Positions 1,936 through 62,448 of a stretch of DNA of 64,000 nucleotides are shown here, piece after piece (the first letter of the stretch is position 1; every line of letters begins with the position of its first letter). The translations under genes were made by a program, and so were the position numbers. Origin of the DNA: Asterionella formosa (taxonomy: Eukaryota). The notes below the pieces were generated by a model. That model searched no databases, had not been told where the DNA came from, and was given only the letters and a program-made list of their open reading frames with translations. Where the stretch lies: contig NKIB01012837.1 of NCBI GenBank assembly GCA_002256025.1, forward strand, positions 1 to 64,000, given 5' to 3'.

Positions 1936-2488
1936 TTTGTATAGTTTCACATTGCTATAAAAGATGATGTATTTACAAGAAGCTCAAGAAGGAGTGCAAA
2001 CATCAACTAAATGGCCTATCATCTTTCAAGATTCCTGCATACAAAAATTAAAATATTGCTTATTAGGGTTGCTGAAATTACCTGGAACTAAGAATTTTTA
2101 TGAGTTAGTAAATTTTGAATGACGTGAGCATTCCATTTGAAATATTTAAAATCACCACTGGAAATTTGCGCTTAGGTGCGTACATAGATTCCTGTCCGAA
2201 TTTTGTTACAATCCTCGCTGAACGCCATGACATGATGCAGATCAGTGCAATCAAATGAATGTTAAAAAGTAACTCATGTTGACCAATCATATATTTTATA
2301 CCGGTATCTGGAAGTGGGCACTTATGTACAATGAAATTTGTTGGACAGGATATATTAGGACTAAAAGTTCTGACACATGACTACCAGCAGTACTTACTAT
2401 TCTGATAATGATGTTTTGGCTCATAGTGTAGAAAAGGCCGATTTTGTCGAATTTTTGGATGAGGACAATAGCTCAATGTCGGCTTGGT

Positions 2489-2677
2489 CTGACGGCGATT
2501 TCAATACATAGGTAACCTTCAAACAGCATCAGTATATTTCTTCCGGCAAGAAAGTGCAGAAAGGAACTTCGGTTTTTTACTATGCCATACTATAAACAGA
2601 TTTCCACCAAATTTTCTAGTCTTTATAGCAAAATAAAAAAGCCGAAGTTACTTTCTGCTCTTTCTTGCTATATCCTA
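2489..2677. repeat. Dispersed repeat family A, copy 1, with internal inverted repeat (arms about 2546-2578 and 2635-2668)
   Basis: Arm gcaagaaagtgcagaaaggaacttcggtttttt pairs with aaaaaagccgaagttactttctgctctttcttgc. The whole segment aligns by eye, in reverse orientation, with 19901-20087. Confidence 0.8.
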
Positions 2678-2956
2678 TATCCTGATGATATATAGAGTGG
2701 ACCTACTTTCACAGAAGACTGTATGTAAGTATATGGAAAGGGTGTCTCTTGGTGAAAGCTCTGTTGAGCCTAATAACATATCTATTTTAAATTGTGAGAA
2801 TAACTTGTCTGATTAGTCTGACTCAAATATATATTTTTAGGGGTTCAAATGCAAGGGGTTCAAATGCAGGAACCTTAAAAGTGATAGCTAAAATGCTATG
2901 ATGTAAGCAAAGCAGGGGGTTTCCTGATGTAATTTGAATACAATACAGTATAAATT

Positions 2957-3143
2957 GGGCTCTTTCTGGCTCATTAGGCTGATTTCAGTATCTCTTTGAG
3001 GCTCCATATGAAAACCTTTTTGTTACTTTCCTTTAACTTTAGATACATAATTGGATAGCATTCTTTCTTTTGAATAAAAGGGCTTCCATAATGCATGTTA
3101 AAGACAAAGAATTGGAATCGAATTACTACTATTTAGTGATGTG
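2957..3143. repeat. Dispersed repeat family B, copy 1
   Basis: The reverse complement aligns with 36286-36490. Shared blocks: actgaaatcagcctaatgagcc, atgtatctaXagttaaagga, agccctttta, ttccaatt..tttgtctttaac. Confidence 0.8.
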
Positions 3144-3385
3144 ATCTGCTGAACTGGCATTCTTTCAAGTTGATGACCATTTGCAATGTTCACATAATGA
3201 TTTCGGACCCACAGTGATGGGTGAAAGTATTTTTTTTTAAATATATAGAAATGTATTGGGACTCTACCAGTTTGTATATTATGGTCAGGAGTGCTGGCAC
3301 GTCATAAACTATCAACAATGTGTTCAAAATCTGCCGAAAATTGATGTGAATGCATAATATTCACACATTTGCTTACTCATTATAT

Positions 3386-6300
3386 CTATGCAATTGAACC
3401 CTTCATAACTACCCCAGTACCTTCGACCAGAACACCCAAGTCATAGACAACATCTGCACCAGATGCCTTCAGGACATCTTTAACAGCTTGCACATCTTCG
3501 CTAGAAACAATCAGGACCATACCAATGCCACAATTAAAAGTTCGCAACATTTCAGTATCGTCTAAGCCACTGGCGCTTTTCATCCACTTGAACACGGCAG
3601 GCAAAGGGGGGTGGCCAGTGATAATTGCTCCCACGTTGCTGGGAAGACTTCTCGGCAAATTCTCCAGGAGACCTCCTCCAGTGATGTGGGCCATTCCCTT
3701 GACGAGATTCTTCTTAAGTAGAGGCAAACACATTTTAACATAGATTTTCGTAGGTGTCAAAAGGTTGTCAGCGATTGTTTCGACTGAGCTGTCCCATGGG
3801 CAGGGGCTTTCATAAGTCAAGCCTTCTTTTTCTATCAATTTTCTAACCAAACTGAAACCATTGCTATGAATGCCACTACTTGGAAGACCCAGAAGGGAGT
3901 CCCCAATGCATACTCCCTGCGGAAGGATACGGTCGCGGTGGACAGCACCCACACTGAAGCCGGCAAGGTCATAATCACCTGGTGCGTACATAGACGGCAT
4001 CTCCGCAGTTTCTCCACCAATCAGACCACAGCCTGCTAGCTTGCAGCCTTCCGCGATTCCTCGAACGACTGCCGCCGCTTCGTCGACATTAAGGTGACCC
4101 GTAGCATAGTAGTCTAAGAAGAAAAGAGGCTCCCCACCGGCAACAATAAGGTCATTGACGCACATGGCAACCAAATCAATACCCACAAATTCATTCTTCC
4201 CTGTCGTTTGTGCTATTCTCAGCTTTGTTCCGACTCCATCGGTAGCACCAATCAATACAGTGTCAGCACCATTATATCCGGCAGCAGCAAGATCGAAAAG
4301 TCCACCAAAGCCCCCAAGATCAGCATCACATCCTGGTCGTCGAGTAGATTTGCAAGCTGGCTTAATCATATCAACAAGATGATTGCCAGCATCAATGTCA
4401 ACACCGGCATCGGCGTAGCTGATAACTTCTTCTTTGGTGGCCTTATCAATGGCTTCGATGAATGCAATTCCCTCTAGCAGCTGAATTTTAGCTTTCAGGG
4501 TTTCGGCTGTATCGTCCTTCTCCACTTTTACAACCTTTTGAACGATAATGGGACCCCCATCAACAACATCAGTGACTTCGTGAATTGTACATCCTGACTC
4601 GCCTTCACCAGCATCAATAACGGCCTGATGAACCGCAAGGTCCATACCGCCAGCATGCTTCGGCAAGAGGGATGGATGGACATTTAAACAGCGGCCACTC
4701 CAAAAGTCAGTAAAACCCTTCGAAAGGATTCGCATATAGCCAATCAGAAGTACCAAGTCAACACCCGCGCTCAGAAGGATAGAAGTGCATTCTGCATCGT
4801 ACTCTTCTCGGGAGAGTCCCTTGGACGAAACAAACTGTGTTGTAACAGTCACACCCAAGGCACGTCCCTTTTCAAGAATTGGAGCAGCAGACTTGTTACT
4901 GATAACAGAGACGATTTCGGCATGCAACCCGCCGGAGTGACAAGCTTCAATTACAGGGATGAGAGCACTTCCTCTAGTACTCCCAAGGACTCCAATGCGC
5001 AGCTTTTTTTCGGTCGCCTTCTTTCCTATATCACTTCTTGAGTGCATTAGCGATTCTCCAGAGGGTCCCAAAAAATCCAACTTGCCTACTCCCTGGTAGG
5101 ACCGATGCAACGCAGTTTTCAAGTCCTGGCCAATACCAGTAACAGCGAGCACACGTCCTCCAGAACAACGTAGGACACCTTGATCATCATGCGTAGTCCC
5201 TGCATGATAAACCTTGACATTATTGATTGCGTTTGCAACGTTGACACCCTCAATTGCCATACCCTTGGGGTATGCCTCCGGATACCCTTGTGCTGAACAC
5301 ACAACAGTAGCTGCCGAAGTATTTTCTTTGAAGCGCACATCAACATCTTGAAGAGTACCATCGCAGCATGCAGTCAATACTTCGTACAAATCCGTTTCCA
5401 GAAGGGGCAAGACAACTTGTGTCTCAGGATCCCCGAATCTGCAGTTGTATTCCAGCATCATGGGGCCATTCGGTGTAAGCATCATGCCAGCATACAAGCA
5501 ACCAACATATGGAGTTCCTCGTTCTGCCATCTTCTCCACTGTCAAGATGCACATGGCCTCGATTTCTTTTTGCAACGCTGGTGTGACACAAGGGGCAGGC
5601 GCATATGCACCCATGCCTCCCGTATTGAGTCCCTGGTCATTGTCCAGAGCGCGTTTGTGATCTTGGGCTGCTGGCATCAATACAGCTGTCTTTCCATCAC
5701 AAAATGCAAGGCAAGACGCTTCTGGTCCAGTCAAAAAAGATTCAATGACACAAACATCCCCTGCTGTACCAAACGCCTTTTCGGACATAATTTCCTTGAC
5801 AGCAGCAATTGTTTCATCCTTCGTTGTAGGGAGCAGCACTCCCTTTCCTGCGGCAAGTCCGGACGCTTTCACAACTTGGCGGTCGCTCTCATCAAGGGAC
5901 TCAACATAGGCAATGGCTTCCGCAATGTTTGTAAAATTTTTATATTTTGCAGTTGGAATGCCATGTGTATTGAGAAAGTCCTTAGTGAAGGCCTGCAAAA
6001 ATGAGAAAAAGAAAACGTATTTGGGTCAATTGGCAAGTCCTCCATACATTTGCACCAATGTTGTTGCATCACCACAACGAATCGTTCTAATCCTCTCAAT
6101 ATCATACCTTGCTCGCTTCAAGTTCTGCTGCCGCCTTGGTCGGTCCAAAAACTTTGACATGTGGACACTTGATAGCCAATTCATCAACAAGTCCATCCAC
6201 CAACGGTCCCTCAGGTCCAACCACAACCATGTGTGCAGCAAGTGTCATTGTCAAGGCCACAACAGTAGCATTATCTTGACCTCCCGGCGCATTCGAAATT

Positions 6301-7073
6301 TTACCTCCTTCCATAGCTGTCCCACCATTCCCAGGACAGCAAATAACGTTTGCCACTAATGGCGACTTGGCCAAGGCAACAGCAAGAGCATGTTCGCGAC
6401 CGCCAGATCCAACGACAATAACAACGTCACGACGTTGTCCACATAGTTGAGTTGCGACCCATTGATCTAGCTGTCCCAGAGCAGCTAACGAAGCGGCACA
6501 TAGATTCGACTGCAAATAAACGTCTCCAGTCATTGCGGCGATAATGTTATCTTGAGTACCTCCACAAAAGGAGTCGGTAGTTGGGTCGTAGACCACCACA
6601 ACGGTAGTGTGTGCATCATTCAACAACGTCGATCGCACAATGGAGGCTTCGGCGTTGGCTGCAATGAATTCCGTGACGGACGACGGCTTACAGTAGACCA
6701 AGAGGTTTTTGCCATTGATAGTAGTAGTTGCAGTTGATGCGCTATCGTTACTACTCTGAAGGAAGATTCTGAAGGGGGGTTTCTGCAAGGCCCATTGAAC
6801 ATTTTGGGATCGTTTGGGGGTGATTGTCTGCACTCCAATCTCACGCACGGCCTTGGTCAATAACTCCAGGAGCTTTGATGGAGTAAGAGCAATTGTATTG
6901 GTTAGATTTAGAACTAGTTTTAGAATTAGATTTAGAATTCTCCATGTTTGTATTAGTAGGTCGACACGAAAGTATTGTGTGCTACCCTATGTTACTGCAA
7001 TCGAACTTAACCACTAACTTACCTCGTTGGGAACCCTTCCTCCAAATCCCAACACGGTTGCGACACTCATCAT
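3386..7073 (-). CDS. GART: Trifunctional purine biosynthesis protein, domain order N-terminal extension-GARS(PurD)-GART(PurN)-AIRS(PurM), about 1140 aa
   Basis: Exons 7073-7023 (first exon tentative), 6872-6108 and 5992-3386, joined by GT-AG introns. The second splice restores ELEASK|AFTKDF. GARS motifs: VGSGGREHALA, KASGLAAGKGV, QDHKR, NTGGMGAY, EYNCRFGDPE. PurN motifs: NVHPSLLP, GCTIH..VDGGPI. PurM motifs: YADAGVD, TDGVGTK, GGETAEMP, HITGGG, TFNCGIG. Confidence 0.95.
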
Positions 7074-7893
7074 ATGCAATTGCTACTATATCTTTTGTTT
7101 TAACAATGAACGCAAGCTTCTTTACCTGCTGTAATGTCTGTAACACCCTGCCGCTACTGACAAGCAAGAGAAAAGGAGCGATTGTATATACGTCTACCTT
7201 ATGTCTTTTTCAAGATCATGGACTGAAAAACAAATGTTTTGTTGATGGGATATGGTACCAGGTACCTGGTACCGGTAATACTGGTTGGAGTAATAATACC
7301 TGTTGTAGACCAAACATCATGATGGCATACCGGTACTCCTGTGATAAAAGTACTGGTATGGTACCAGTAACAGTATACCAGGTATCAGGGCATGCTGCTG
7401 TACTGTATGATGTGTGAGGATGACCGATGAATGGATACCCTTCGCGCATGACGCACGATTTCTACTCTTGTCCGACTTCCGTCGCCTATTATACCGGTAC
7501 TTACTACCGATATATGATATAGTGGTATATACTGGTAGGATGCTTGTGATGCCAAATGAAAGGATTACACGTGGAGGAATGATCTGCTCCACGACAACAC
7601 GGTATATATATACCACGGTGCAAAGCACAGCATGATATACTGATAATTGTCTCTCATTCGCTCTTGTATGGCATTTTTGTGTCCACATCACCATGTCATG
7701 CATCGCGACGATCCGAAAAACGTCAGTGTGCGTAGTACTTGTAACTTTTGGAATTTGATTGTGATATCTCATACACGTTTGATTCAAGAAAGCTATTACC
7801 AACATGCGAGCTTTTAACTACAGAATGCAATGCAGTTTACCAATCAATAGCAAAAAGGCATCACGACAATCATCTTTTTTTCATGTCAGTTTG

Positions 7894-8661
7894 ATGCGAT
7901 ACACCGTTTTGATGATGATGACACAAAAACATCATCATATGGTTCGTTCCATTGACATTGATTCATATATTCGTGATGAACTGGGTTTGGATCTAGAGTC
8001 CATGTCGGAACGCGAATTGGAACAAGTTTGCGAGGATCGAGGGTATGAAATGGTAAAGGACGAGATTGATGAAGATACTGGAAAGCTCTTGATTTCTAGT
8101 CACGATGACTATGTAGACGCTGCCAAACAGTGCCTCAGCATTCAATGGTTCACGTGAGTAACAAACAACACAAAAAGACATGAAAAAATCAATAGAGTGA
8201 AGTGAATCGCATCCAAAAAGTTACATGTGCTTGCCCTTCTGACACCAAGTTATTCGTCTCTTGTTATGTTTACTATTTTCTCTACTCACAGTGATAGTGA
8301 ACTCGCTAACTCTCGAGCCATGGAGGATGAACTTCGAATAAAGCTGGAAGATACTATGCGAGAGAACCAAAGGCTTCAACAAGAATTGGCCGCGGTTATA
8401 GAAAATCGTGACGGGGGTATTCTTGCAGCAAGGAGAAAGAAACTGATGAAACAAGTAGCGGCGACATGGGATTCATTTGTCCGAATTCTACCAGAACCTC
8501 TTCAAGAGTTGTCCCAGAAAGGAGTGATGTTAATTCGACTAAAGGAGACACTGCAATTAGTACAGCAAATGACTATAAGGTATGGAAATGCTATTGTTGG
8601 AAATATGTTTCTACCAATTACCAACCAGAATCACTCCAACACAACTGTTTCGGAGCTATAA
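7894..8661 (+). CDS. Hypothetical protein, tandem paralogue of 9248-10299 (start uncertain)
   Basis: Exons about 7894-8153 and 8292-8661 with a phase-2 intron (gtgagt...cacag). It shares a ~60-aa domain (ELGLDLESMSERELEQVC..GYEMVKDE.D..TG....SHDDYVDAAKQCLSI) with the neighbouring gene, followed by a coiled-coil-like segment. Confidence 0.65.
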
Positions 8662-9247
8662 ACCTGCTTTGATTGCTTTCTATGTCCACAATTCTGGAAA
8701 GGCCAATAAGATAATTACAAAAGTTATTTGCTACAGCTCATCACTCTCTATATTGTACACATACATACATGCACAGAACTGGTCACTACATTTCAAATGT
8801 ACAATTTTAGTGTTCACATACCGGTACATATTACGTATAATAATATGTTATATATTCGTCACTATTATTTTTGCTGTTCTCCCTACCGGTACGATAGCTA
8901 CAGTACATGTGAATGTGTGTCCTCCACTTGGCACTTTCAAAATCAAACAATTAAATCCTCATGTCGCATCACTTTTTCATTGCGATCCCATGTTGTATAC
9001 TTCCCATGTATCATTACTGGGTATGAATATTTTGTTAAAAACAATTCTCTCAGGTACACATTGATGATTTGTTTATCATTCAGTTATTTTCATAGACTTC
9101 ACTGAAATCGTCACATCATCATTGTATCCTTACCATCTCGTCGAGCACAGTACTGTTACCAACAGTGGCAACCAGTAATTCGATACTTTCTGACACAATT
9201 ACTCGTAACATAAGGTAGATACAGATCGATACAGCATTCTAAACAAA

Positions 9248-10299
9248 ATGGTTGCCTGCCTCGTGGTTCGACAATTCGTCATTCTGCTATTGGCAGTATT
9301 AGCACTCGTCGGCAAAGCACAAACAACATCCAAAGGGCTAGATAATGAGTTTGGAATGGACCTCCATAACATGACGGAATCGGAATTGGAAAAAATCTGT
9401 ACTGATCTGGGATTTGCTCTTCAAAAAGATATTGTGGACGATGCGACGGGAGAAGTTATTGTCTTTTCTCATGGCGACTACGTAGAAGCTGCTCGTCAAT
9501 GTCTGAGTATTGAAAAGGAACTGTAAGTGCTTTTGGTAGAGGTGGATGTTATTTTTAAAGCCTTGTTGGAATATTTAAAATGTCAAACACTTGGAATTGA
9601 AAGACTTGGCAACATTATAAGTGGCTGGTTTTCATTATTCAATGACACGCTCACATTTTTGGTTCTGTCTCCCCCCTCCCATACAGTGAAGACGTGTTGG
9701 CCGAGCACCCTGAGATTCTTGAAGAACTGGAGGCGGAACGCACTCGAATGATGCAGGAGAAAGAACGTCTTGAACATGATTTGGAGAACACCAAACAGAA
9801 ACAAAATGCTACCGCACGCGACCAGCCTTTATCGGCTGCATTTATTTCAGATCAAAAGGAGGTCGAGGGAAAGAAGGCATCTGCAAAAGTGGAAACGGAA
9901 CTGAGTACAAGTAGTGAGGAGAAAAGAAGCAATCTCAGAGGTAATGATATTCCTGAGGAAAGAAACGTATCTACGCCATCACAAGAGCATCATGAGTTGA
10001 CTGAACAACGTAAATCCCCACAAACACTATTGGAAGTTCTCGACGAATTGTTTTTGGGACCTTTACCCCCACCAGTGAAAGAAATTGTGCACCAAGTCTT
10101 GGCAAAAATCAAGCAAGACTTGACCGTAGTTTTGTCATTGGTCAATCGTCACGTGATGCCACTGATTGGGCAGCTAGTGAAAGCCATTCGGTCCCTTATG
10201 AATGGGGAGAACAGCAAAGAAAATTCTGCGGCCCCCATACCGGTTCAAGAACAGAACCTATCTGAGGAACAAGCGGACGATGCTACAACAGTTGCATAG
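9248..10299 (+). CDS. Secreted/ER hypothetical protein, about 295 aa, tandem paralogue of 7894-8661
   Basis: Signal peptide MVACLVVRQFVILLLAVLALVGKA. Exons 9248-9522 and 9687-10299 with a phase-2 intron (gtaagt...tacag). Domain EFGMDLHNMTESELEKIC..GFALQKD..D..TGE...SHGDYVEAARQCLSI, then a coiled coil. Confidence 0.8.
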
Positions 10300-10497
10300 A
10301 AAATGATAGCTGTGTGAATGAAACGCCATATATATATACATAGGATAACTTGAAATTCTGGATGTTGCTTGTTAACAATCTGACGTCTACTGCAAACAAA
10401 GTCGGTGCAAAACACTAAAGGCAAAAACGTAAATTTACCATCTATTATTTCATATGGTTGGATCTTCAAAGAACTGAATGCAAACATAGTTGTATAA

Positions 10498-10932
10498 CTA
10501 TGCCGCCTTCTTTCCAGTCCAGAGTCCCTTAATGCAACCCTTGATACCACCCTTGTCATTCAGTGCAATCTTGCCAAGCCCCAGCAGAGTGAGGGTTCCG
10601 ATTCCGAAATTGAGAACTCTAGCAGGTCCGAGAAGAGCTTTGGAGAGCTTGGGGACATAATCTGACGCCACGTAATTCAATCCAATCCATGAATGAGCCG
10701 ATATAGTAACAGCCACAACACCACCAAAGATTCTCCCAGATATGCCATCTGTGTAGGAATCTGGCAAAGCCATTATGAGCGGAGCAGCACCAAGGAGGAA
10801 GATCGTCATACTATGATGAATGTGAGTTCCTAGACTACCAGTGTCTCCTTCAAGAGGAGACACGGAGAAGGAACGCTTTGGTGAACGTTGGGCAACGAGC
10901 CTAGACGACGACGAGAGCAATCGGAGTGCCAT
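10498..10932 (-). CDS. SDH4: Succinate dehydrogenase cytochrome b small subunit (CybS)
   Basis: Arg/Ser-rich mitochondrial presequence, three hydrophobic helices and the CybS motif HSWIGLNYVASDYVPK. Confidence 0.85.
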   Translation of the reverse strand: MALRLLSSSSRLVAQRSPKRSFSVSPLEGDTGSLGTHIHHSMTIFLLGAAPLIMALPDSYTDGISGRIFGGVVAVTISAHSWIGLNYVASDYVPKLSKALLGPARVLNFGIGTLTLLGLGKIALNDKGGIKGCIKGLWTGKKAA

Positions 10933-12349
10933 GGTGGAGTTCGGATTCTTGCCGATTTATTGTGACGGTATCAAAGGATTCGTTATGCTTCTTTACAGCA
11001 GCTGCCATCAAAGGTTGCATCATGCATGATATTGTGTTGGCTGTGTCTCGCTTGCTGGCTGTGCGTGGCTCTATTTATGTATTACCCTGGGCGCCTGGAA
11101 GGCCTGCCTGTGGTGCTCGTTTTATGCGCACTTATTCCATTTCGACCCAGTCCCGATGACTCATCCCATGCCTACTGGATGAGATAGTCTGGCTTTCCAT
11201 TCCAAACTCCCTTTGGTAATTTCAATAATGTTAAATTATCAATCATTAAATCCAAGTTGTGTTCTGATCATCAAAATTGTGTTCACCTACTACTACAACT
11301 GGTAATGGTATTCAGCAACAGGGAGATGGTTTACTAATGGAATTCACCAATCAGTAACTTCTAGTCATTATCAGCAAGTTCTAGTTGTTGTCAGCAGATT
11401 TCTAGTTGTATTTAGTCACCAACTGGATCAGTAATCATAAACGAAAGAGTCATTTTGAAAATATCATAGGACGACTACTATTAATTGATATTGTTACATA
11501 GAAAATTTGATTTGACCAACAGATTGCCATAGTGTAGAGTGTAGCATACTGTGAAAGTGTTAAATCTCATTGTAACTTCATTTTGAATTGTGCTTTATAT
11601 AAACTACATGAAGAATTGCGCCATCGGCGACTTGTTCAATTTTCGTTGTCAATAGTATTAGTGTTATTACATTTTTTTACGATTGTATTATCTATGTCAA
11701 GTTAGATATTTATGACCCCATCTCGTCTGGCAGGAATGAGAAAAATCATTGGAAGTGGGTCAAAATTGAAAAGGTTTGCATAAAATGTGCACTTCTAGAT
11801 TTTTCTGGAGGAACAAGAATACTTTCCTGGTAGCTAGTAGCTACAAGCAAGGAGTAGTACCTGGAAGACTATGGAGTACCTTGCACCCTGTACTCTGCCT
11901 GTACATAGTTTGATTTTTAATACTAACGGCATTATTGATTGAGGCAAGCAGGGAATACAACGAAATAATGAGTCGCTTGGTGTTGAGGTAAAAATATCTC
12001 AGACTGGCTGTCTATAGCATGCTGGCTGGCTGAACTCCATTGCGGCGGAGTAGGGCTGAAGCATTTTGGTGAGGTCAAACAATTCTAAAATTTTGTACAT
12101 CTAGCCACACCAGAACGAAAACAAAAAACAATTGATGCATACATAGGATTATTGTCCTATGATCAAATAAAAAGCATTGCCATCCCCAGTGCACTGGACT
12201 TATCACCCACATCCCAGTGTAGCTAGATCAACATTAACCTTCAGAATTCTTTCCCTGCACCAGGTAATAGAAGTCATCAGGTCCTATATATGGAATTATA
12301 TTATAATCTGTGTACTGATCAAAATGAGCCATATCTTTATAAGTAACTG

Positions 12350-12830
12350 CAGTGGTCAGTGATATTATACTGCAACAGTAATACTGCGGGTTTTATTCTG
12401 AGAAAGACAGTATAATGTTATACCATATTCAATTGCCAAACAGTTAGGTATTTCAATATTGAAACAACAGTATACCAGTATCCTGATACTGCTGCCAAAG
12501 CAGTATTCTTATTCTCACTACCTCACAATTTTTGGCCTACTAATGGCAGCTATTACAAAAGTGAAAATGCGGTGCTTTTTTCCCCTCTTTGGTGTTGCTT
12601 GCCTACATGCACACAAACAGGGATTTTGTGCTCCTATTCTTTGCAAGACACGGCCAGATTTTCTGTCAGATTCCTACATAACAGTATGCTGGCATGCTAG
12701 ACCAGTATACTGGTGAAATTTTAGAACAGTATGGTATTTGGAAAATGAAATGACAGTATCCTGGTATACTGATCCTGTGTCTGGAACAGTATCAGTATCC
12801 AATATTGCAGTATACTATCACCAACCACTG
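12350..12830. mobile_element. hAT-like non-autonomous element (MITE), 481 bp
   Basis: 27-bp imperfect TIRs cagtggtcagtgatattatactgcaac / attgcagtatactatcaccaaccactg (23/27 match). Near-identical 8-bp flanks agtaactg (12342-12349) and ggtaactg (12831-12838). Many internal cagtat/atactg motifs and no transposase ORF. Confidence 0.75.
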
Positions 12831-13055
12831 GGTAACTGATCATTGTTCTGATTGGCAAAATATACAGGGATCCCATCAATCATAGTACTTGGGTTCCGAC
12901 CCAAGCACGTCCTTCAATTGTATTTCTAAATAATTTTACTTTCATCATAATCCAGACCATTTCGAGAGTGCATCCCTAATCACATTTGTCGACTTCTGAG
13001 CAAACATCAATTACGCTAAAATACCAGACTCGTGAGTGGTGGACCATTGACTCAC

Positions 13056-13787
13056 CTACTCCATTTTTGGTGCAAGGGCCAAAATAGTGAACCTCATCTC
13101 ATCAGGGTCTCGATTCATGAACGTTTCGACTATCCTGCATGAGTCTTGGAGCAGGCTGAACTCTGACGTGCCTCCATGATACACAGGCCCCTTCTTCCTT
13201 CCATCCAACTCATAGAGCTCCCCATCTACATGCACCAGGGCAATGAAATGAGTAATAACATCATCATCACGTTCTCCCCGCAAGGTTTGGTTGCTAGAGT
13301 CTGTAGTTGCACTATCATGAAGGGTTTCAATGGTGGAATCTTCCTCAAGTCGCTCCGCTTTGCTGACTGGAGCTCGGTCAAGTGGACAATCCTGGTAGAA
13401 TTTACTCAACCAAGAGTCAGGCACAATCGACGCCGCCTTTATTCCTTCGGGAGTATTCAAGAGTGAGTGTAGCAGACCGATTGTTCCACAGGCGTTACCG
13501 ATACGTTGTTTGATAAACCACACTTTGGAGTCGCCATTTTCAGGAACGCCCGCGGCTTCGTCTCTTCGGTGCTGCTCCTGCACGTCTGTAAGAGGATACA
13601 ACATAATAACCGCGGCGACTGGCTGAGGAATCATTGACAGCGCCCATTCTTCAGTGGAATAAACATCGACAAACTCGTAATGACTAGTGTCAAAGCCCAA
13701 CTTTTGAACATAGGAATTCATTAGAGTTGGATTGCTCTCAAGAGGAAACCATTTCTTTGTTGTCGTTCCTTCCTTTGCGTCTGTCAT
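13056..13787 (-). CDS. Ubiquitin carboxyl-terminal hydrolase, peptidase C12 (UCH-L1/L3 type)
   Basis: WFPLESNP, QRIGNACGT (catalytic Cys), HFIAL (His) and ELDGR (Asp). Confidence 0.95.
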   Translation of the reverse strand: MTDAKEGTTTKKWFPLESNPTLMNSYVQKLGFDTSHYEFVDVYSTEEWALSMIPQPVAAVIMLYPLTDVQEQHRRDEAAGVPENGDSKVWFIKQRIGNACGTIGLLHSLLNTPEGIKAASIVPDSWLSKFYQDCPLDRAPVSKAERLEEDSTIETLHDSATTDSSNQTLRGERDDDVITHFIALVHVDGELYELDGRKKGPVYHGGTSEFSLLQDSCRIVETFMNRDPDEMRFTILALAPKME

Positions 13788-14246
13788 TTTTTACCAAGCA
13801 GTGCCTCTTCCTTGTTTGCTTGGTGAGTGTGTGTGAAAGAACAGCAAGTCAGTGTATTGTTGTTGGTTGAGAGCATCACAAAATGACGGTCGGAGTCAAC
13901 ACAGAGTGGTAAATAAACGTAAATGACGGATCATGTGCGAACAATTATACTACCGGTAGTGCGTACCGAAGTTTTGTGGAATACCTGTGACATACATCCC
14001 TACCGGTAAAGTAGTAAGTAATCATACATACGACATTTTGTAGTAGATGAGAGCTCTTTTTCTTTGTATCTTTCATTTTAGCTCTCCATGGAGGCATGCA
14101 TACCGATCGTTTTTACAGTGTGTATGGTATAAAATAAAAATGCTGGCACATCTTGGCTGCTGTCTCGCCTCCTCTGCTCTGAGCGATGTTACCGGTAGCA
14201 GTACATATCATCATTCTTCGTGCATATTTTGCCATGAAAGCCAAAA

Positions 14247-15359
14247 ATGTCATTCAACCACAACAATGTCCGCCTCCGCCACCATCAAACAACAACTTTC
14301 GCACAGCTTCGATCAGATAAGAACCAACTCTTCTTACTTGATGGTGGGACGGGCGAGGAACTCTTTCGACGAGGCGTTCCTAACGATCGGACCATTTGGA
14401 GTGCCATTGCCATTGTCGATCCTGTGAACCATGACACCTTGAAACAAGTACATGCATCATTTATTGAAGCTGGATCACAAGCCATTACAACCAACTCATA
14501 TGGATTCGGTATGGTATTTCAGAATGTTAATGAGCTTCAACAACATTTAGCCAAGGCCGGGGAACTGGCGAATGAAAGTGCCGGGGACAAGGAAGATGTC
14601 ATCGTCCTGGGCAGTCTGGGTCCACTTGTAGAAAGCTATCGGCCAGACAAAATTTTGAACCATGATTTAGGAGTGGAAAGGTATAGCAAGATGAAGGGGG
14701 CACTTATGCCGTACGTTGATGCATTCTTGGTGGAAACCATGTCATCGTTTGAGGAAAGTACACAAGCCATAGAGGCGGTGGGAGGCGACTTACCTCTGCT
14801 AGTGTCCTACACTTTGGATTCCAATGGTAACCTTCGAAGTAAGGAGCTTGTTACTTTTGGAATTTCTCGTTTGCTAGATTTTACAGCACTTCGAAATGTG
14901 GATTGTAAGTATGCTACTAGATATTTGCAAATGACCAGGTTCCAACAATGTCACGTGTGAAATCATATTATTAACCCATATTCCTGTTCATGATGATTGC
15001 CTCAAATAGTATTCGCAGTATTATTCAATTGTACTGAACCAGAGGCAATTACGATGGCTCTACAGGAAATTAAGACCGATCTTGAATTAACCAAACGCCT
15101 GTCAATGCGCGGCGTGTTGTTGGGAGCCTATGCTAATTGTTTGACTCCAGTTGCCCCAGATTGGTCGTTACAGGAATCAGATGGACCTCAACCAATGAGA
15201 AATGACTTGGATCCAGGAAGGTACTACAGTGAATTTGTCAAAGTATGGGTACAAGATTTTAATGTACAACTAATTGGCGGGTGCTGCGGCATAACACCAG
15301 AGCATATCAATTTTTTGCGAGAAAAGTTACAACGAGGAGCAAATGAAAAACATCTATAG
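14247..15359 (+). CDS. Homocysteine S-methyltransferase family protein
   Basis: Exons 14247-14904 and 15010-15359 (gtaagt...aatag). Motifs LLDGGTG, HxxFIxAG..ITTNSY, GSLGP, ETMS, and Zn ligands FNC and IGGCCG. Confidence 0.92.
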
Positions 15360-19900: not shown

Positions 19901-20087
19901 ACTAGGATCTGGCGAGAAACAGCAGAAAGGAACTTAGGTTTTTTAAACTATGCTATAAAACTAGAAATTTCTCGGGAAAATCACTTTATTTGGCATAGTA
20001 AAAACAAGTTTTGTTTCTGCAGTATCTCGCTAGAAGTAATATACTGGTACCATTTGAGAGGTCCTTATGTATCTAAATCGCCTTCAG
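19901..20087. repeat. Dispersed repeat family A, copy 2 (inverted relative to 2489-2677)
   Basis: taggat..gc.agaaa.agcagaaag.aactt.gg.ttttt...tgctataaa.ctagaaa...tggcatagtaaaaa...tttctgca...aatatact...tatgtat..aaatcgcc.tcag matches the reverse complement of copy 1. Confidence 0.8.
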
Positions 20088-22639: not shown

Positions 22640-22874
22640 TGACGTTGCAATGAATTTCCATGTTTCCAATGAATGAATACTCTTGTGTATGGGAAGATCA
22701 AGCGAAGAACCAGAATTGTAATTTGTTTCCCTACTGCTGTTGCTCTACGAATCTCTCAAAACCAGCTAAATAGTATGTATGTGTCCCTCATATTTTCCTG
22801 AGTGAGGGCACCGACAAAATGGCAGATCGAAAACAAAAGGAGTGATAATTCTTGATTTTGAATCTTGACATTCC

Positions 22875-41458: not shown

Positions 41459-41548
41459 CTAGTTGTACGTAGTCAGGTGATGGCTACAAATCTATGTATA
41501 GATATAAATAAATATACATCATTTCAGCATCGATTGCTCAAGCCTTCT

Positions 41549-46502: not shown

Positions 46503-49500
46503 ATGAACACTATGGAAACGACCAGCGCAGAGGAACAACAACCACGTCGGGAGCCGGAAATATACATTGGGCGCCACAATGCCTCAATAGAAGCCATCTC
46601 AATTGGTGAAACAGATGTGAATCTTTCTAAAGGTATGTATATTTAGAGTTTCCATATTGTTCACCACTGATTTATGGTAGCTTCCCTCTGTATCACTTTT
46701 TCTCACCCCGGATGCTGAAGAATCTGGATTCTCACGGCTTTCCGTTTGGACCAATACAGACAAAGATAGCACATCAACATCTATTGATTCAATACTCTCA
46801 AACCACGTGGATCTCGAAAGTCGCATTGATATTACTGATACGAATAATAAAGACTCGAAATTAAAAGCCACTACGCTTCACGATGCTCAACATCGGGAAG
46901 ATATCCTCGACAATTTTCTGACTAGACCTTCCATCGCACCGCACGAGGTTGATGCCGTTAGAAATTCGATCGAAACTGCGCTACGCCAAGCCCTTGAAAT
47001 AGTAGAAAAAGGAGGCAAAGAAGCATTTGATCTACATACAATGCAGGAAAGGAGACGCAAGAACTCGTTGACTTCAAAATCAGTCTACCATAAGGAGTAC
47101 CAGCGAGCTTTAGAGGAAGCAGAGATTCATGGAAATCCTCGTGACTACCAAGCTGCCCTCTTTGAAGCGGCCAAGAAGCGCAATACAATCGTCAACCTAG
47201 GAACTGGTCAAGGCAAGACAATGATAGCATTGTTGACGATTCAACATTTTGCCTTTGCCTATGAAGAAGGCAAGCAAACTTTGTTCATGGTTCCTAGTGT
47301 TCCTTTATGCATACAGCAGTCCATGACACTCCAGGCAAACTTACCCTACAGTACAAAAATGGCTTCCGCTGATGTATCACATTCTTATACAACACTCCAA
47401 GAACTAGCAAACGCAAATATACTCGTGGCAACTCATGGAGCGATTCATGAAATGCTCATGCATTACGGGGACATCTTTCAGATGGAACGGTTCAATCTCT
47501 TGGTCTTTGACGAATGTCACTACGCCTCAGGAAATCATGATTATAAAATAATCATGGAGAAGTTTTATCATGTCTTACCAAAGGATAAGCGTCCTCATGT
47601 CTTGGGCCTCACGGCATCTCCATTACTGAACGTGAGACACACACACAGCGACGGCCAGCTTGGAAGGATGCTGACTGCTCTGGAAACGACATTGGATGCA
47701 AAGGTGGTATCGCTCCGAGATCTGGGAGTCACGGACACAAGATTCGTGCAACAGCACGTCGAAGAAAAGCATGTATTCTTTCAGACCACATACCTACCTC
47801 AAGACTTTCCATCTCATGAACATGTTGGGCTTCATCAAGCCCGTCTCCGAGAATTTCAACAGCTTAATCACATTTACCAAGATTTGGGTCCATTGTCATG
47901 TTCTATTTACTGTCGGACTTTGATTCAAGAAGTGTCTTGTAATGAATACGAGCAAGAGACCTCTCATGAATTCCGTTCAGTCGTAAATCACTTGCAAAGT
48001 ATTGCCAACTATTGCGACAACAAAACGAAAATATGTCCACACGGTGGTCGAACGGAGAAGTTGTTAAAACTCGAACGCTTGCTGGAGGAGTGCATTGAGT
48101 TTCAAGGTGATAAAGACACCGTAGGACTTGTCTTTGTCGAGCGACGCATCACAGCCATGGCTCTTCACAATCTTTTGTTGCATCGTCAGCAGGCATTGGA
48201 TGCCGAAAACTGGAGACGAGCCTCGGATATGGTCGATCTCCCTCCTGATGATGATTGTACACCATTGTCGACCTCGTCTCCAACCGCTCTTGCCGTTCAA
48301 TCTAAGGGAAATTCACATAGGAAGACATTCAAAACATTATCCTCAGTTTCTAGGTCAGTACCACATTTGACAAATTGTCAATCGATCCAAGATGACGAGG
48401 AGCTGTACTCGGATGCAGACGCTCTTGCCATTCCTTTGAAGCGAAATTCTCAGAGCAACACAACCAATTCCTTTTTGTCGGTATCTGCATCAGTGCCACA
48501 TCCGACCCTTTGTCGATCAATCCAACATGACGAGGACCAGTTCGCGAATGCAGAAGCTTTTTCAAAAGCTGCCAAGGAAATGTCTCATGGCAACAAAGAC
48601 AACGAATTTTTGTCAGTATTTGGAGCAATACCACACCCGAAACGACGTTATCGACCAATCCAAGATGATGAGGACAAGTTCGTGGTTACAGGAGATTTTC
48701 CAATGGATTCCGAGGACTTGTCTCATAGCAACAAATTGTTTTCTGTATCTGGAGCAGTACCACACTCGACAGATTGTTTACAGGACACAAAAGCTCTTTT
48801 ACATCATTCCAGGGACAATTCTCAGAGCAGCAGTTCATCGTTGTCGGTATTTGGAACGGTTCCAGATCCCTGCCAAGATGATGAGGATCAGTTCGCGGAC
48901 GCAGAAGATCTTTCAGTTCAGTTCATGGACAATTCTCGGAGCAAGAAACAAGCCAACACATTTTTGTCGGTAGCTGAATTAATGCCGCATCCGACGATTT
49001 ATGGACCAATCCAAGATGATGATGACCAGTTCGCAGACGCTGATGAACTGGAGCTCCATGAAACTTTTAGTATGAGTCAAGCATCTGTACCAGTTCAGGG
49101 ACATAAAAGTAACATTGACGACTCCCATTCTGTTATTTCCGGTCAGTTCAGCGATGTTGATGAAGAGTTTGGCCTCACGAATATTGCCAAGCGGGATTTC
49201 ATTGATAAAATACGGTGCGACGTTCTTGTTCGGCAATCCACTCAGATCTTCAAATATCTCCGTTCTGGAAAAAATCGGGCTATCGGAAGCGATAGGAAGA
49301 AAACGGACCAAGAAATGAACATTCGGAACATTCTAAGTTCTTTGAAACGACGAGAATTCAACTTGCTCATCGCGACTTCAGTTGTCGAAGAAGGCGTGGA
49401 CATTCAAGCGTAAGCACCAATGCATTTCTTATTTGAAAAGGATGGATGTTACTCAACTTGTGTGGTTCTACTTTTTTGACAGATGCTCGTTTATTGTGGT

Positions 49501-54521: not shown

Positions 54522-54847
54522 CTTTGGGTAAAAGAAGCGAAGGAGCTTATATGTAGGCTATCGGTATTGCAACTGGCCTACAGTTCCTTCATCACAAAAT
54601 TGTGATGTCGTGTAATAGTGGTGCCACCAATAATGCAGACATCACTGTGAACATCACTGTGTGTGATTGCCGCGAGACATCACTGGGAAAAAAGTGATGG
54701 CTCCAAAACAAAGGAAAACGCACCACCATCATCAGCCAGCCAAAAGGCGGTTAGCGTTACAGGTAGGGTTTCCAATTGCGGTGAATTATTACCTGCTGGT
54801 AGGTTGACTCTGTAGCAGGTACCTGTTACCACCAGCTAGCTACCTGC

Positions 54848-54872
54848 TACCAGGTACCAGGTACCAGGTACC
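54848..54872. repeat. (TACCAGG)3.5 short tandem array in a divergent intergenic region
   Basis: taccaggtaccaggtaccaggtacc. Related arrays at 7256-7277, 43948-44010 and 60005-60038. Confidence 0.85.
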
Positions 54873-55221
54873 TGTCGTTAGTAGCTACACTACGAACCTG
54901 GAGGAGAGTGATGTTGTAAATTCACCGGTGCTTACCGGTACTACTGTTTAGAATGTATCATGGGGTTTTGCCTAACTTTGACAGTGGCGATGAATATATA
55001 GGGTAGACCTAACTGGACAAATGATGTCGTATGGTTGTGCCGCGAAACGTTCGTTTTGTTGCTCCATTTGTAGCATGATACGTGCGATGAAACGTATCAT
55101 GTGGTCATGAATTTTATCGGGTACCAGGGTACTGGCACCGGGTTTCCGCTGCTCAGCATACAGTCATAGTACCCGGTAATTTACTACAGTTAGGACAAAG
55201 CAAAACAGCAAGAAGAAAGCA

Positions 55222-58687: not shown

Positions 58688-58896
58688 TTGGGCTGGAAAT
58701 AGTAAAATAATGGCCAATAGGACTCTTTCAAATGCTTGAATGGCGAAACATATTGTTTATTGGTTTTCAGTCAAAGGTTGCAGCTGCTATTATCACTTGA
58801 TCCGTACATGGAAGTTTCGGACGAGTGCTAGTGCATCGATTAGGGGTTCAGGTAAGCGGAATACAGTATATCGAGCATGTGAGAATGCTATTCAGT

Positions 58897-59802
58897 TTAA
58901 CCCAAGAGTGGAGTGTGGAAAAGAAGGGTCTGAGTAGTAGCTCCAACAAATGCAATCATAGCAAGACGAGAGTGCACAACTTCTTGGGCCTGGATTCTCT
59001 TGACCTCAGCGGCGCTCTTTCCTTCAAGAAGCCCAAGGAAGTCCCAGCCAATATCACCAGGCATGCCCTCAGCATAATGCTTGTTGAAGGTTGCAATCTC
59101 AATAGCTCCAATAGCACAGAAGACTTGCAAGTTTCCGGCGAATCCAACTTGGGCGACGGCAGCGAAAGGGTCAGTGTTGGTGAATTGATCACCAGGGATG
59201 TGCCATCCTGATCCGAAAGGACCATATTCTTGGGTGACCATACCGAGAATAGCAAGCATGCAAATGCGGCCATGCTTCAGTTCAGACCAACGGGCGTACT
59301 TCAAGTCAGCCTGGATCTCCGAAAGGCCCATAGGGTCGAATCCAACATCACCAGCCATGGAGCCATCAAGCTTTTCAGGGCGGACCAAGAAAGGAATGGA
59401 CTCGGACATTTCAGCGTTCAAAGAAACATCAGCCCGTGAAAACTGCGAAGCAAGGGAAACTATGTGAGAAAACTAACTGGCACAACATAGCGACGACGCC
59501 GCCGTGGTCAATAGTTTTTCATTTATGTGTCAATGCCAAGAGAGCAGGGACATCTTAAATAAATAACCAATTTATGAGGATATATTTTCAGGGAACAAAC
59601 TCCTTCATAAAAAGCGCTCGTCCGATTAGGAAGAAAGATCTTCATTGCCTAAATATTTTCTTCGCATCCGCTTGAAAACCGCAATGAGTAAATATGTTGA
59701 ACACTTTCTTCCACAATGAAGCTGACGTACCACCTTGGAGGAAGGTGCAAAGGCGGAGGCAGAAGCCAGCAAAGAAGCAAGGACGATGTTTCGGAGCACC
59801 AT
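58897..59802 (-). CDS. Light-harvesting chlorophyll a/c-binding protein, Lhcr-like, about 205 aa
   Basis: Exons 59802-59731 and 59442-58897. ASAFAP presequence, SIPFL.RP.KLDGSMAGDVGFDPMG, SELKHGRICMLA and QEVVHSRLAMIA. Confidence 0.93.
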
Positions 59803-61097
59803 GGTCAACACTTTTTTACAGCAAAATGGTGACGATTCTGCCGCCTGGGTTTCGACTGAATTCTACGCTATGGATTACGAGGTGCCGATCTTTGAACCTC
59901 AACTCGGGTAGAGTGTGTCTGTGTCGTCACAGCCATATCTCATATCTCACGTTGGAATAAGCATGTTGTCCGCCCACCATCATGTATGCCAGTAAGGACA
60001 TTTGTACCAGGGTACCAGTATCAGGTACCTGGTACCAGAAGAGGAGCGATGCATACTATTCTTACCGGTATATGATATAGTTCATGCTGAGGAGCGAAGA
60101 CGAGATCATCAGAGTGCTTAAGAATGCATACGTCATCACAAAGACCACATCGGTGGGTACCTGGTATGCCGTGTACTGGAGATAATGCACGTATAGTACA
60201 TTGTACATGGTACATGGTATCTGGTACTAGAGACTAGAGACTGCTGGTGAATACTTATTTCCCCAAGGCTTTTATATTAGACTTGTTTGTCTATCAGCTC
60301 TCAGTAGTCAAGAGCGGACTGCTTTTGGGGAATCACTTTCACATGATATTCTAAAAGATATAGCAATATCAGGTGTGCTGGCTGCCATCTGCACCCCAGC
60401 CATTCATTGTGTTTGGTAGCCAGTCAATCAATTCAGGGAAAATTTTGTGAAAAAATAGTTCAGCATGGCACTGGCAAAATATACATTAACATCTTTGACA
60501 CACGATGGTCCTGATCATACTCTAGAGACTGTCGAATATCCTCACCCTAGACTACTGGTACTGGCCAGTACTGGTACCAGTAGTCTGGGAGTAATGACCA
60601 GATAATACCTGCAAATTGCAGTCATTTGTTGAAATTGATAACATGACACAGGGCAGGCACTTAAGTACTTCAAATTAAATCGAGAAGATCATCAATTCAC
60701 AACTTTGAAATCAACTGTATCGGGTCATGGCCCAAAGCAAATGTAAAAGCAAGTCTTGCTTACTTTGCTTTTTTCTCTCAAAAATAAAAATCATTCTCCT
60801 TTTCTGGTCAAAGTGATGAAAACAACCAAAAATGGACAACACTACCGGTATATCAATAAGGATTGGAATATGCATATGCCAGCTTCATCATGTGCAACAA
60901 CTACTGTTACCCCACTGCTGGATGGATTCATGCTCAGGGTAACCAAGCTAGCATGTAACTACCGTATACAATGATTCTATGTACCGGTATACTAGCTACA
61001 TAACAGGAAACGAGCATACCAGTAGTAGCCCATGCAGTGATGACCAAAAAATTGTGAAAGCATGCATACACTTCTATAGACAGTTTTCCGATAAGTT

Positions 61098-62129
61098 TTA
61101 AAAGGACCAGTTAGCCGAGAATGGAGCCATGACCTCACCAGAATAAGGCTTGACAATATCCGCCAAAAGTGGGACGGATCCAGGGATGGTTTGTGCGGAG
61201 ACAAAGCCAAAAATTCCAAGCATGGCCAAACGTCCGTTGTTGATCTCTGCGACAAGTCGTCTTGCTTTGGCATCTTCCGACATGTTCTTCGAGAACTTGA
61301 AAGGATCGTAAAGGTTGAACGGAACAGAGTGTGGGATGGCATCGAATGTTGGATATTGTCCAGGCTTTCCTCCCTTGGTGTAGTGGACTAGACCAGATGT
61401 AGTGCCCTCACCGGGTGTCAACTCGGAATACTTTCGATCAAAATGACAACATTAGAAACGGGTGGAACTGCATTTGTATTGTCAACAAGCACGTTATAAA
61501 GACGCCATCCGAAAAACTTACCCACTCAAGGAAACCAATAAAAAGGACAATTTGAAGCTTCGAAGCCAAAGGAAGGGCATCCCACTGTTCAGGAGGTGAT
61601 AGATCAATGGAAGGGAAAGGAGTTCCGTCCAAGGTCATGGCCCAAGGCCAGTGGAAGTTGGACTGAACGCAGTATCCAACAAAGGCAGCCATTGCAACGC
61701 GGCTGTGTTTGATCTCCGATTGGCGCAACCATCCAATGGTGAACTCATCAGATTTTCCCCAGAAACCGGCGTCTTTCAAAAAGGAGATTTTGCATACGTG
61801 TTAATAGACTAGTCTTCACAGATAAATGCAAAGTGAATTAACAACACAACTAGCGCAAGCAGAACTCACCAGACAAGCCAAGAGGATCGAAGTATCCGAG
61901 AATAGGGTTTAACTTCTTTCCAAGGGCCTCAAGGTCCGACTATTTTATGCAAAGAAAGAAACAAACGAGGGTGAGAATTTGTTATGGCGGGAAATAATTT
62001 ACCCTGCTTTAGTCATTTTCAAAGCCAACATACCTTGGTCTCCGAAAGCTGAGATGCTCCACGGTTGACAGCAGCAGGAGCAAATGCAACGGCGGAGCCG
62101 ACCAACAAAGCAGCAGCAATAATCTTCAT
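61098..62129 (-). CDS. Light-harvesting fucoxanthin-chlorophyll protein, probably Lhcq-like, about 249 aa
   Basis: Exons 62129-62034, 61939-61870, 61772-61522 and 61430-61098. AVAFAP presequence, LNPILGYFDPLGL, WLRQSEIKHSRVAMAAFVG, HY.KGGKPG.YP, LYDPF and AEINNGRLAMLG. Confidence 0.93.
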
Positions 62130-62448
62130 CGTCGTTTTTGTTCTATTCAATCTGGTAGAATGGGTTGTTGGGTAAAACGGTACTTGAATATCAAGGGGAA
62201 AAGAGCCGCATGATCCTCACTTTTTCATACTAACAATCAGGTTAAATTTAGTATGTCAGCCTCACTTTATAGTGTAAATACATGATAATAAGATTTCCTC
62301 AACTAACGCTAACCCTAGTTTAGATAGATCAATTCGACTTCTGTGACTACAAAATTTTGGCGCGACAAAGAAAAGCATCGTACCGGTAGAAAATACACCG
62401 GAGTACCGGTATATACCAGGTTTGGTACCAGTAAAAACACCAGTAAAA

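Follow-up and report, generated by a model that had tools for sequence, protein, structure and literature searches.

A palindromic octamer and its hexamer family at promoters in a 64-kb stretch of the diatom Asterionella formosa as putative protein-binding sites

The palindromic octamer TACCGGTA occurs 24 times in a 64,000-nucleotide stretch of the diatom Asterionella formosa (assembly GCA_002256025.1, contig NKIB01012837.1, positions 1 to 64,000 of the forward strand; this whole stretch is referred to as the window). Its enrichment within the window is extreme and specific, and all copies are located in non-coding DNA. The octamer is the tip of a larger word family, the common unit of which is the hexamer TACCDG (CHGGTA on the other strand), and the density of this hexamer rises with the number of promoters per intergenic region. 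We propose that the members of this family are putative protein-binding sites that mark promoter DNA and that the binder is possibly Myb-like, a reading that we judge to be about evenly poised between right and wrong. Abundant palindromic promoter words are already known as a kind, and the identical word is known from oomycetes. New here are its density and the surrounding family of hexamers and short arrays, neither of which is described in the accessible text of the oomycete reports. Little is understood of diatom promoters, and the searchable literature yielded no general promoter word for them; in the window, one sharply defined word family dominates the intergenic k-mer spectrum.

Enrichment of the octamer in non-coding DNA

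Coding DNA was assigned from Pfam matches, which were obtained for 23 of the 82 stop-to-stop open reading frames (ORFs) of at least 110 amino acids, and additional exons were placed by a codon-usage score trained on the Pfam-supported ORFs and by intron joints in RNA contigs. This splits the window into 39,068 b of coding-like DNA (61%) and 24,932 b of non-coding DNA. A DNA search for TACCGGTA returned exactly 24 matches, confirming all of the start positions given in an earlier note that was made from the letters of this DNA alone. No other 8-mer of the window is as frequent as the octamer, which reaches 48 on both strands together compared to 25 for the runner-up and amounts to about one copy per gene. 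In 100 dinucleotide-preserving shuffles it was found on average 0.34 times (sd 0.54, maximum 2) and none of the shuffles reached 24. Markov models of orders 1-6, trained with the 24 copies masked, predict 0.28-0.69 sites, and the enrichment is therefore real within the window. The earlier note had named a loss of the enrichment against a background of 4th or 5th order as one of the results that would refute it. If such models are trained on the same 64 kb without masking, orders 4, 5 and 6 predict 4.1, 13.1 and 23.3 sites, respectively. The reasoning is circular in that case, since TACCGGTA itself supplies 24 of the window's 29 ACCGGT and 24 of its 112 CCGG; once the copies are masked, the excess stays.

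In non-coding DNA, 24 copies compare with 0.20 expected. None of the 24 is located in the coding-like DNA, as the earlier note had stated for coding exons, and none in the 31,760 b of Pfam-supported ORFs. As only about 0.3 copies are expected by chance in coding DNA, this constitutes an enrichment in non-coding DNA and not an avoidance of exons. Scans of the window with Rfam and for tRNAs gave no RNA genes, so the octamer is not tied to RNA genes here.

The TACCDG hexamer family

The three TACCDG hexamers are found at 166 non-coding sites compared to 25.9 expected (TACCGG 62, TACCAG 57, TACCTG 47), while the fourth form, TACCCG, occurs 5 times with 4.3 expected. In coding-like DNA, the three hexamers together have 40 sites with 27 expected. 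This family also supplies all of the eight most strongly enriched 6-mers of the non-coding DNA. Further members were compared with a first-order simulation of the non-coding DNA: TACCWGGTA is present 14 times (0.14 expected) and is absent from coding-like DNA, TACCAGTA/TACTGGTA is present 20 times (0.84 expected; 4 in coding-like DNA), TGGTACCA 9 times (0.42 expected; 2 in coding-like DNA) and GGTACC 29 times (2.9 expected; 3 in coding-like DNA). The half-sites TACC and GGTA are mostly adjacent (24 sites) or separated by one base (15 sites), with 4 sites at a spacing of two; overlapped in the other order as GGTACC they account for 29 sites, and direct GGTA repeats peak at periods of 7 and 14. 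Thus the octamer that had been put forward as the element is real, but it is not the whole signal, the unit being TACCDG with its relatives.

Association with promoters

Twenty-three intergenic regions of the window were classed by their flanking genes, the classes resting on our own gene models. Divergent regions, which hold two promoters (n = 7, 4,786 b), contain 14.2 TACCDG per kb and 9 octamers; tandem regions with one promoter (n = 9, 9,785 b) contain 6.1 per kb and 11 octamers; and convergent regions, which hold no promoter (n = 7, 1,722 b), contain 2.3 per kb and no octamer. Three octamers lie in two further regions of ambiguous type (4,660 b), and the copy at 21722 is outside all classed regions, inside an RNA-covered stretch that starts at 21634. 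Calculated per region, because sites inside arrays are not independent, the TACCDG density correlates with the promoter number (Spearman rho 0.63, p = 0.0012) and is higher in divergent than in convergent regions (one-sided Mann-Whitney test, p = 0.009). In one-way promoters 31 hexamers are in sense and 29 in antisense orientation, and this lack of strand bias is as expected for an orientation-free site.

The earlier note had placed most copies 60-1000 bp upstream of a start codon, which is roughly right: 17 of the 24 precede, by 53-740 bp, the first in-frame ATG of a gene pointing away from them, whereas seven are ambiguous. Its suggestion of a promoter-associated cis-element agrees with the non-coding location and with the scaling of density by promoter number; its likening of the octamer to a cyanobacterial palindrome is superficial, as discussed below.

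RNA contigs of three runs were mapped on positions 6001-26000, and the longest contig pieces, which were the ones listed, cover only one of the 13 octamers in this part. The RNA cover of the GART gene ends at 7200 and the densest motif cluster starts at 7253; cover resumes at 7715 for the divergent neighbor, termed geneA, and at 9063 for the gene termed geneB. The cover of the UCH gene reaches 13924, with octamers at 13951 and 14001. These positions are a weak hint only, since a contig need not end where its transcript does and the listing is limited to the longest pieces; stretches lacking RNA cover are not taken as silent. Among 40 listed of about 170 differences in the mapped runs none lies in an octamer, from which no inference on constraint is drawn. 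A loose end of a contig of run X14 at 7166, considered as an upstream GART exon, maps to 4887-4912 inside GART and is an assembly chimera.

Variants, arrays and the origin of the sites

Of the one-mismatch variants of TACCGGTA only the CpG-to-TpG product TACCAGTA/TACTGGTA is strongly enriched. Its 20 sites correspond to deamination of the inner C, compared to 3 sites for the product of the outer C, TATCGGTA, and CpG dinucleotides reach 0.74 of expectation outside the Pfam-supported ORFs. CCGG and CCWGG are classic sites of C5-methyltransferases. These observations would fit an explanation in which the family is the target or by-product of DNA modification, repair or recombination, comparable to the highly iterated palindrome HIP1, for instance through biased repair at sites of a CCGG/CCWGG cytosine methyltransferase, or as a signal for recombination or replication. 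Such a drive should act everywhere, as it seems to for HIP1, whereas TACCGGTA has no copy in the 39 kb of coding-like DNA. If T:G mismatches were repaired with a bias, TACTGGTA should become depleted, yet it is about 20-fold enriched. In addition, the TA..TA flanks are as strict as the core, 24 of the 29 ACCGGT being flanked by T and A, which methylation of CCGG or ACCGGT leaves unexplained. We therefore assign only a very small probability to a modification-driven origin.

The tandem-repeat listing of the window contains seven short arrays with periods of 6 or 7 bp, all in promoter regions (7254-7277, 21720-21734, 43946-43964, 43994-44011, 54812-54874, 60011-60035 and 60196-60227). The only repeat family that involves copies of TACCGGTA is a short GGTACCW array family (D4), and 22 of the 24 copies are located outside any tandem array. 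In the array at 54805-54874 the inner units are perfect and the outer units degenerate, and the array at 21720-21734 varies in length between runs, with a 6-base insertion behind 21723 in run X14. Both features, together with the mixed periods at seven places, the CpG-to-TpG product as main variant and the lineage-specific abundance, are what a neutral, self-expanding repeat of the GGTACC/TACCNGG type would leave behind. Such a repeat would be functionless, would arise and spread by replication slippage and local duplication, would be eroded by CpG transitions and would persist only in open DNA under weak selection, i.e., in intergenic DNA. Slippage does not, however, seed single 8-mers at many loci, and 22 of the octamers are isolated in unrelated sequence. 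As read from the flanks, GG/CC remnants at positions -2 and +2 do not exceed background. Furthermore, the density follows the number of promoters and not just the length of non-coding DNA (convergent 2.3 per kb compared to divergent 14.2 per kb), and the same octamer is enriched in oomycete promoters. On balance, a neutral repeat appears unlikely as the source of the family.

The flanks of the 24 copies are unrelated to one another, and the copies are therefore not fragments of one repeat. The earlier note had considered that they might be pieces of one transposon family; beside the unrelated flanks, the location of 22 copies outside arrays and the absence from the window of an element with inverted repeats ending in the motif are at variance with this. 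A different role of transposons was considered, in which the sites are excision footprints of a TA-targeting cut-and-paste transposon of the Tc1/mariner type with ends beginning CC...GG. The TA duplication and remnants of the tips would yield TA-CCGG-TA and TA-CCWGG-TA, re-insertion into TA would yield the 6- and 7-bp arrays, and insertions would accumulate in open promoter DNA. All members of the family can be written as TA + CC(W)GG + TA and the arrays can be read as units of TA followed by 4-5 nt. The form fits the target duplication of a footprint, but any TA..TA palindrome would do so. Both W forms are present (TACCAGGTA, n = 8; TACCTGGTA, n = 6), and the abundance is lineage-specific, as footprints would have it. 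The Phytophthora sister motif TACATGTA has the form of a Tc1 footprint; TA-CA-TG-TA-type footprints of Tc1/mariner elements are discussed with reference to Eide & Anderson 1988, and the idea of a Tc1 footprint was raised for TACATGTA and then rejected by Seidl et al. in view of its conservation (PMC3520976).

A donor with TA|CC...GG|TA ends is absent from the 64 kb: when every TACC was paired with every GGTA 40-6000 b away, 14 candidates were obtained in the window, all of them self-matches of arrays. Ragged variants are not enriched, with 4 sites of TACCGTA|TACGGTA compared to 1.65 expected and 4 of TACCTA|TAGGTA compared to 11.9 expected; TACGTA, counted in the same footprint spectrum, has 11 sites with 4.45 expected. 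Judged from Tc1/mariner biochemistry, remnants of 4 or 5 nt would need unusual cleavage staggers. About one footprint per 370 b of non-coding DNA would demand enormous transposition activity, and the enrichment of the single hexamers TACCAG and TACCTG would be left unexplained. Finally, the one repeat of the window that resembles a miniature inverted-repeat transposable element (MITE) has different ends. An origin as excision footprints thus appears improbable. The MITE-like inverted repeat itself is located at 2543-2670, has arms GCAAGAAAG...CTTTCTTGC that are unlike the TACCGGTA family, and has a related 38-nt copy with 87% identity at 19908-19945. The bin 19341-20007 reaches a DNA depth of about 674 in the metagenome run X7, compared to about 5 elsewhere, pointing to a high-copy dispersed element of this or of co-occurring genomes. 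Should the octamer family prove to stem from footprints or slippage, it would mark a very active lineage-specific mutational process aimed at promoters.

A putative promoter-marking protein

The proposal of protein-binding sites draws on the sharpness of the word, its restriction to non-coding DNA, the dose relationship with promoters, the lack of strand bias, the positions outside RNA contigs and the discovery of the same word in oomycetes. An abundant sequence-specific DNA-binding protein would read the TACCDG hexamer. The octamer would offer two overlapping hexamers, one per strand, so that the protein, either as a homodimer or by binding to either strand, could act in both orientations, which would suit divergent promoters. 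Where sites cluster in the few hundred bp that precede a transcript, they might keep the promoter open or recruit the transcription machinery, for which general promoter factors elsewhere serve as a model. CpG-to-TpG transitions would turn octamers into TACCAGTA/TACTGGTA, leaving one intact hexamer, and the short 6- and 7-bp arrays would grow and shrink by slippage.

As to the nature of the binder, a Myb-type domain would be the best lead. Myb proteins form a large family of factors in stramenopiles. The canonical Myb recognition element is YAACNG, and TACCGG and TACCDG are one position away from TAACGG and YAACNG, respectively. The canonical words TAACGG, TAACAG and TAACTG are not enriched in the window, reaching 0.5-0.8 of expectation, and we know of no Myb protein with an altered specificity of the TACCDG type. 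In P. infestans, six of seven 2R-Mybs assayed gave specificities, and all six bind sequences sharing CCGTTAC (PMC11267843). It is the distance of a single base between this site and CCGGTAC that suggests a Myb-type protein. The main text of the same study, which covers 73 factors on binding arrays, contains no CCGG, GGTA or TACC, logos and supplements being outside the search (PMC11267843). A site of heat shock factors (HSF), suggested by the similarity of TACnnGTA and TTCnnGAA, was not kept as the leading idea: there is little freedom at the two central bases in the window (CG 24, CA/TG 24, all remaining pairs together 18) and the HSF sites of P. infestans quoted in the accessible text keep the TTC/GAA units (PMC11267843).

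Several observations weigh against a promoter-marking protein. No binder of TACCGGTA is known, Phytophthora included. Apart from the TpG product, the 11 other one-mismatch variants together have 23 sites compared to about 5.4 expected, a specificity sharper than that of most factor sites, and the 6- and 7-bp arrays with their length polymorphism resemble microsatellites. Seven of the 24 octamers (21059, 21381, 21401, 21722, 45806, 60843 and 60982) are not clearly on the promoter side, and one RNA contig of run X14 crosses the copy at 21722. There are promoters that lack the family, e.g., the divergent region between the 2-oxoglutarate (2OG) oxygenase and the sulfotransferase genes with no TACCDG in 592 b. 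Where a genome is compact, nearly all intergenic DNA is close to a promoter, and the evidence from position is therefore weak alone. Finally, 257,852 b of algal loci with light-harvesting complex (LHC) genes, described below, show no excess, so that a factor-site pair shared with oomycetes is not visibly used in this way in those algae.

A farther-reaching interpretation would be an ancient stramenopile promoter code, in which the TACCGGTA/TACCDG factor-site pair would be common to oomycetes and at least one diatom lineage and would have been amplified here to about one site per 150 bp of intergenic DNA as the main promoter-defining and promoter-opening sequence, with the arrays as its fast-evolving, self-expanding form. 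We regard this extension as unlikely. The probability that remains beyond protein-binding sites and the three rival origins is left to something not considered here.

The family could serve as bait for a binding protein, and because the identical oomycete motif lacks a binder as well, one pull-down could answer the question for both groups. The family could also aid the prediction of promoters and gene boundaries in metagenome-assembled diatom genomes and guide the design of compact synthetic or bidirectional promoters.

Occurrence in other sequence collections

In one metagenome scan with an LHC protein as query, 80 loci (257,852 b) were collected. They share 34-81% identity with the query over the best segment and at most 73% over the full length, with no close relative among them. 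These algal loci include duplicates, and many of them, only about 1 kb long, look like transcripts. The octamer is found five times (two copies in L021, one each in L023, L028 and L067) compared to 3.9 by chance. When the 8-mers of the 13 long loci were ranked, no palindrome was among the top 8-mers. As judged from these 80 loci, the excess of TACCGGTA is not a general property of diatoms or algae. One diatom-like metagenome locus of 12,214 b (L006) carries the non-palindromic 8-mer GTACTGTA seven times, which may be a different lineage-specific intergenic word.

A scan of prokaryote genomes for stray diatom contigs turned up no relative. In viral contigs, at least 120 stretches contain two octamers within 30 nt, none of which is relevant among the matches examined. 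The densest of the examined matches (L184, L181 and L189) look like GGT-containing coding repeats of the collagen-like Gly-X-Y type and L176 is another tandem repeat; octamer pairs in collagen-like viral genes are thus a trap for pattern searches.

Distribution over individual loci

Genes named by Pfam in the window encode a 7tm_3 receptor, a GARS-GART-AIRS fusion, UCH, homocysteine methyltransferase, Mpp10, ChlH, a 2OG oxygenase, a sulfotransferase, ISN1, a CDP-alcohol transferase, TsaE, ATP synthase gamma, Dicer, a nucleotide transporter (NTT), HemW and two LHC proteins. For ATP synthase gamma the named best matches are from diatoms only (Cylindrotheca, Nitzschia, Helicotheca, Ditylum and others; 62-68% identity), and unnamed metagenome proteins are close to it with 99, 90, 88 and 83% identity. 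The labeled sequencing runs that contain DNA of the window are lake or freshwater samples and one "algae metagenome". Together, these results indicate a freshwater diatom to which no named entry of the protein collection is closely related.

The first octamer (2299-2306) is 367 bp upstream of the first ATG of the 7tm_3 gene, which encodes a G-protein-coupled receptor. The densest cluster (7253-7540) occupies the divergent promoter of GART and geneA with octamers at 7270, 7328 and 7492; it also holds the array GGTACCAGGTACCTGGTACCGGTA (7254-7277) and copies of TACCAGTA/TACTGGTA, TACCWGGTA and TGGTACCA, and the region contains 16 TACCDG in 514 b. The RNA contigs listed nearby cover 7023-7200 and 7715-8153, with none listed in between. 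The same divergent promoter contains the near-palindrome CACGGTATATATATACCACGGTG (7598-7622) with GGTA/TACC half-sites 6 bp apart. Two octamers (8819 and 8884) are located 172-244 bp upstream of the RNA contig start (9063) of geneB on the plus strand, and three (13951, 14001 and 14190) in the divergent promoter of the UCH and homocysteine methyltransferase genes. Four octamers (21059, 21381, 21401 and 21722) adjoin the transcribed stretch 21634-22878, which lacks clear coding potential, together with the array (GGTACC)2.5 at 21720-21734. Three RNA runs show transcription of the stretch, while none of its ORFs scores convincingly for codon usage; either a long 3' untranslated region of the small membrane-protein gene on the minus strand (22878-23399) or an independent transcript, non-coding or unannotated, may account for it.

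The octamer at 24868-24875 is 10-14 bp upstream of the RNA contig starts of ChlH found in two studies (24885 and 24889) and 113 bp upstream of its first ATG. The copy at 32054-32061 precedes by 444 bp the first ATG of ORF 30888-31643 on the minus strand, a putative silicanin according to the earlier note, and the copy at 36340-36347 is 643 bp upstream of the first ATG of ISN1. In the divergent promoter of the CDP-alcohol transferase and TsaE genes an octamer (40449-40456) is located 94 bp upstream of the TsaE ATG, accompanied by TACCAGTA/TACTGGTA copies at 40235 and 40488. The divergent promoter upstream of ATP synthase gamma (43834-44011) has no exact octamer; it contains TACCWGGTA at 43852, 43948, 43995 and 44002 and two arrays of 7-bp period (43946-43964 and 43994-44011). 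Between the 3' end of ATP synthase gamma and the 5' end of Dicer (45806-45990), an octamer at 45806, 387 bp past the ATP synthase gamma stop, is followed by TACCWGGTA at 45982.

The divergent NTT/HemW promoter (54805-54940) combines an octamer at 54933 with the degenerate array at 54805-54874, which consists of about nine units of TA plus 5 nt with a period of 7 and includes TACCWGGTA at 54848, 54855 and 54862. Upstream of the first LHC gene, LHC1 (60011-60227), an octamer (60063) and two TACCWGGTA (60026 and 60158) occur together with the arrays 60011-60035 and (GTACATG)4.6 at 60196-60227. Two octamers at 60843 and 60982 (60843-60989) are just past the stop of the second, LHC2, a position that is either 3' of this gene or a far upstream one with respect to LHC1. 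Two octamers 23 bp apart (62381 and 62404; region 62381-62433) precede the LHC2 ATG by about 700 bp and are followed by TGGTACCA at 62423 and TACCAGTA at 62426.

Some further features of the window were noted. The purine-synthesis fusion (3389-7200, minus strand) has the domain order GARS - GART (formyltransferase) - AIRS, while the order of the animal fusion is GARS-AIRS-GART, and its intron 6873-7022 is confirmed by RNA joints. Between its helicase and RNase III parts, the Dicer-like ORF carries a repetitive coding insert (48329-49043) made of four to five diverged repeat copies of about 135-138 bp (Tandem Repeats Finder period 138; families D1 and D3). Downstream of a CybS-like gene, at 10670-12003, the DNA depth of run X7 is 58-100 compared to about 5, with several small indels around 11632-11655 and loose ends of RNA contigs at 11636 and 11670; a short element that is conserved or repeated may be located there.

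Comparison with known systems

The identical octamer was published independently as M94, a "high-confidence" over-represented promoter motif of Phytophthora infestans, along with its sister M93, TACATGTA, of which 4,150 copies are found in promoters (Roy, Kagda & Judelson 2013; PMC3597505). The octamer also appears as motif-9, GTACCGGTA, an inverted repeat upstream of 1,284 Phytophthora genes that is 3-fold enriched at RXLR genes and for which binding of a homodimer was suggested (Seidl et al. 2012; PMC3520976). Motif-9 was equated with streme-5, ATACCGGTAT, of Plasmopara halstedii (PMC10031896). Hence, the earlier view that the motif is undescribed holds for diatoms, for which our literature searches, with figure logos and supplements not searchable, returned no description of TACCGGTA, but not for stramenopiles, where it is an oomycete promoter motif. 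Both hosts are stramenopiles and the 8-bp palindrome of M94 and motif-9 is identical. The oomycete motif is over-represented within about 1 kb upstream of genes, and the same side bias is seen in the window. A weak preference for G before or C after the octamer (17 of 48 flank positions) matches motif-9. Differences exist as well: the density is far higher here, and neither the hexamer family nor the 6- and 7-bp arrays are described in the accessible oomycete literature. There, the motif is tied to expression in infection and germinated cysts and to RXLR effectors, whereas here it accompanies housekeeping, plastid and signaling genes alike. The oomycete sister TACATGTA is not enriched in the window, with 3 sites compared to 0.93 expected.

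General promoter palindromes are known from other eukaryotes, such as the Drosophila DNA replication-related element (DRE) TATCGATA, bound by DREF and BEAF-32, the vertebrate TCTCGCGAGA and the apicomplexan TGCATGCA. Like TACCGGTA, these are short palindromes that are common upstream of many unrelated genes, often in divergent promoters and in either orientation. They have known binders, and their sequences and taxa differ, so that the likeness would be a functional one.

The comparison with HIP1 (GCGATCGC) of cyanobacteria, drawn in the earlier note, applies to the surface of the phenomenon: both are lineage-specific 8-bp palindromes with a CpG core that are hundreds-fold over-represented. 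HIP1 is spread through coding and non-coding DNA, whereas TACCGGTA has no copy in 39,068 b of coding-like DNA and tracks promoters. If the ancient stramenopile code considered above were real, the octamer family would be the eukaryotic, promoter-restricted counterpart of the cyanobacterial highly iterated palindromes.

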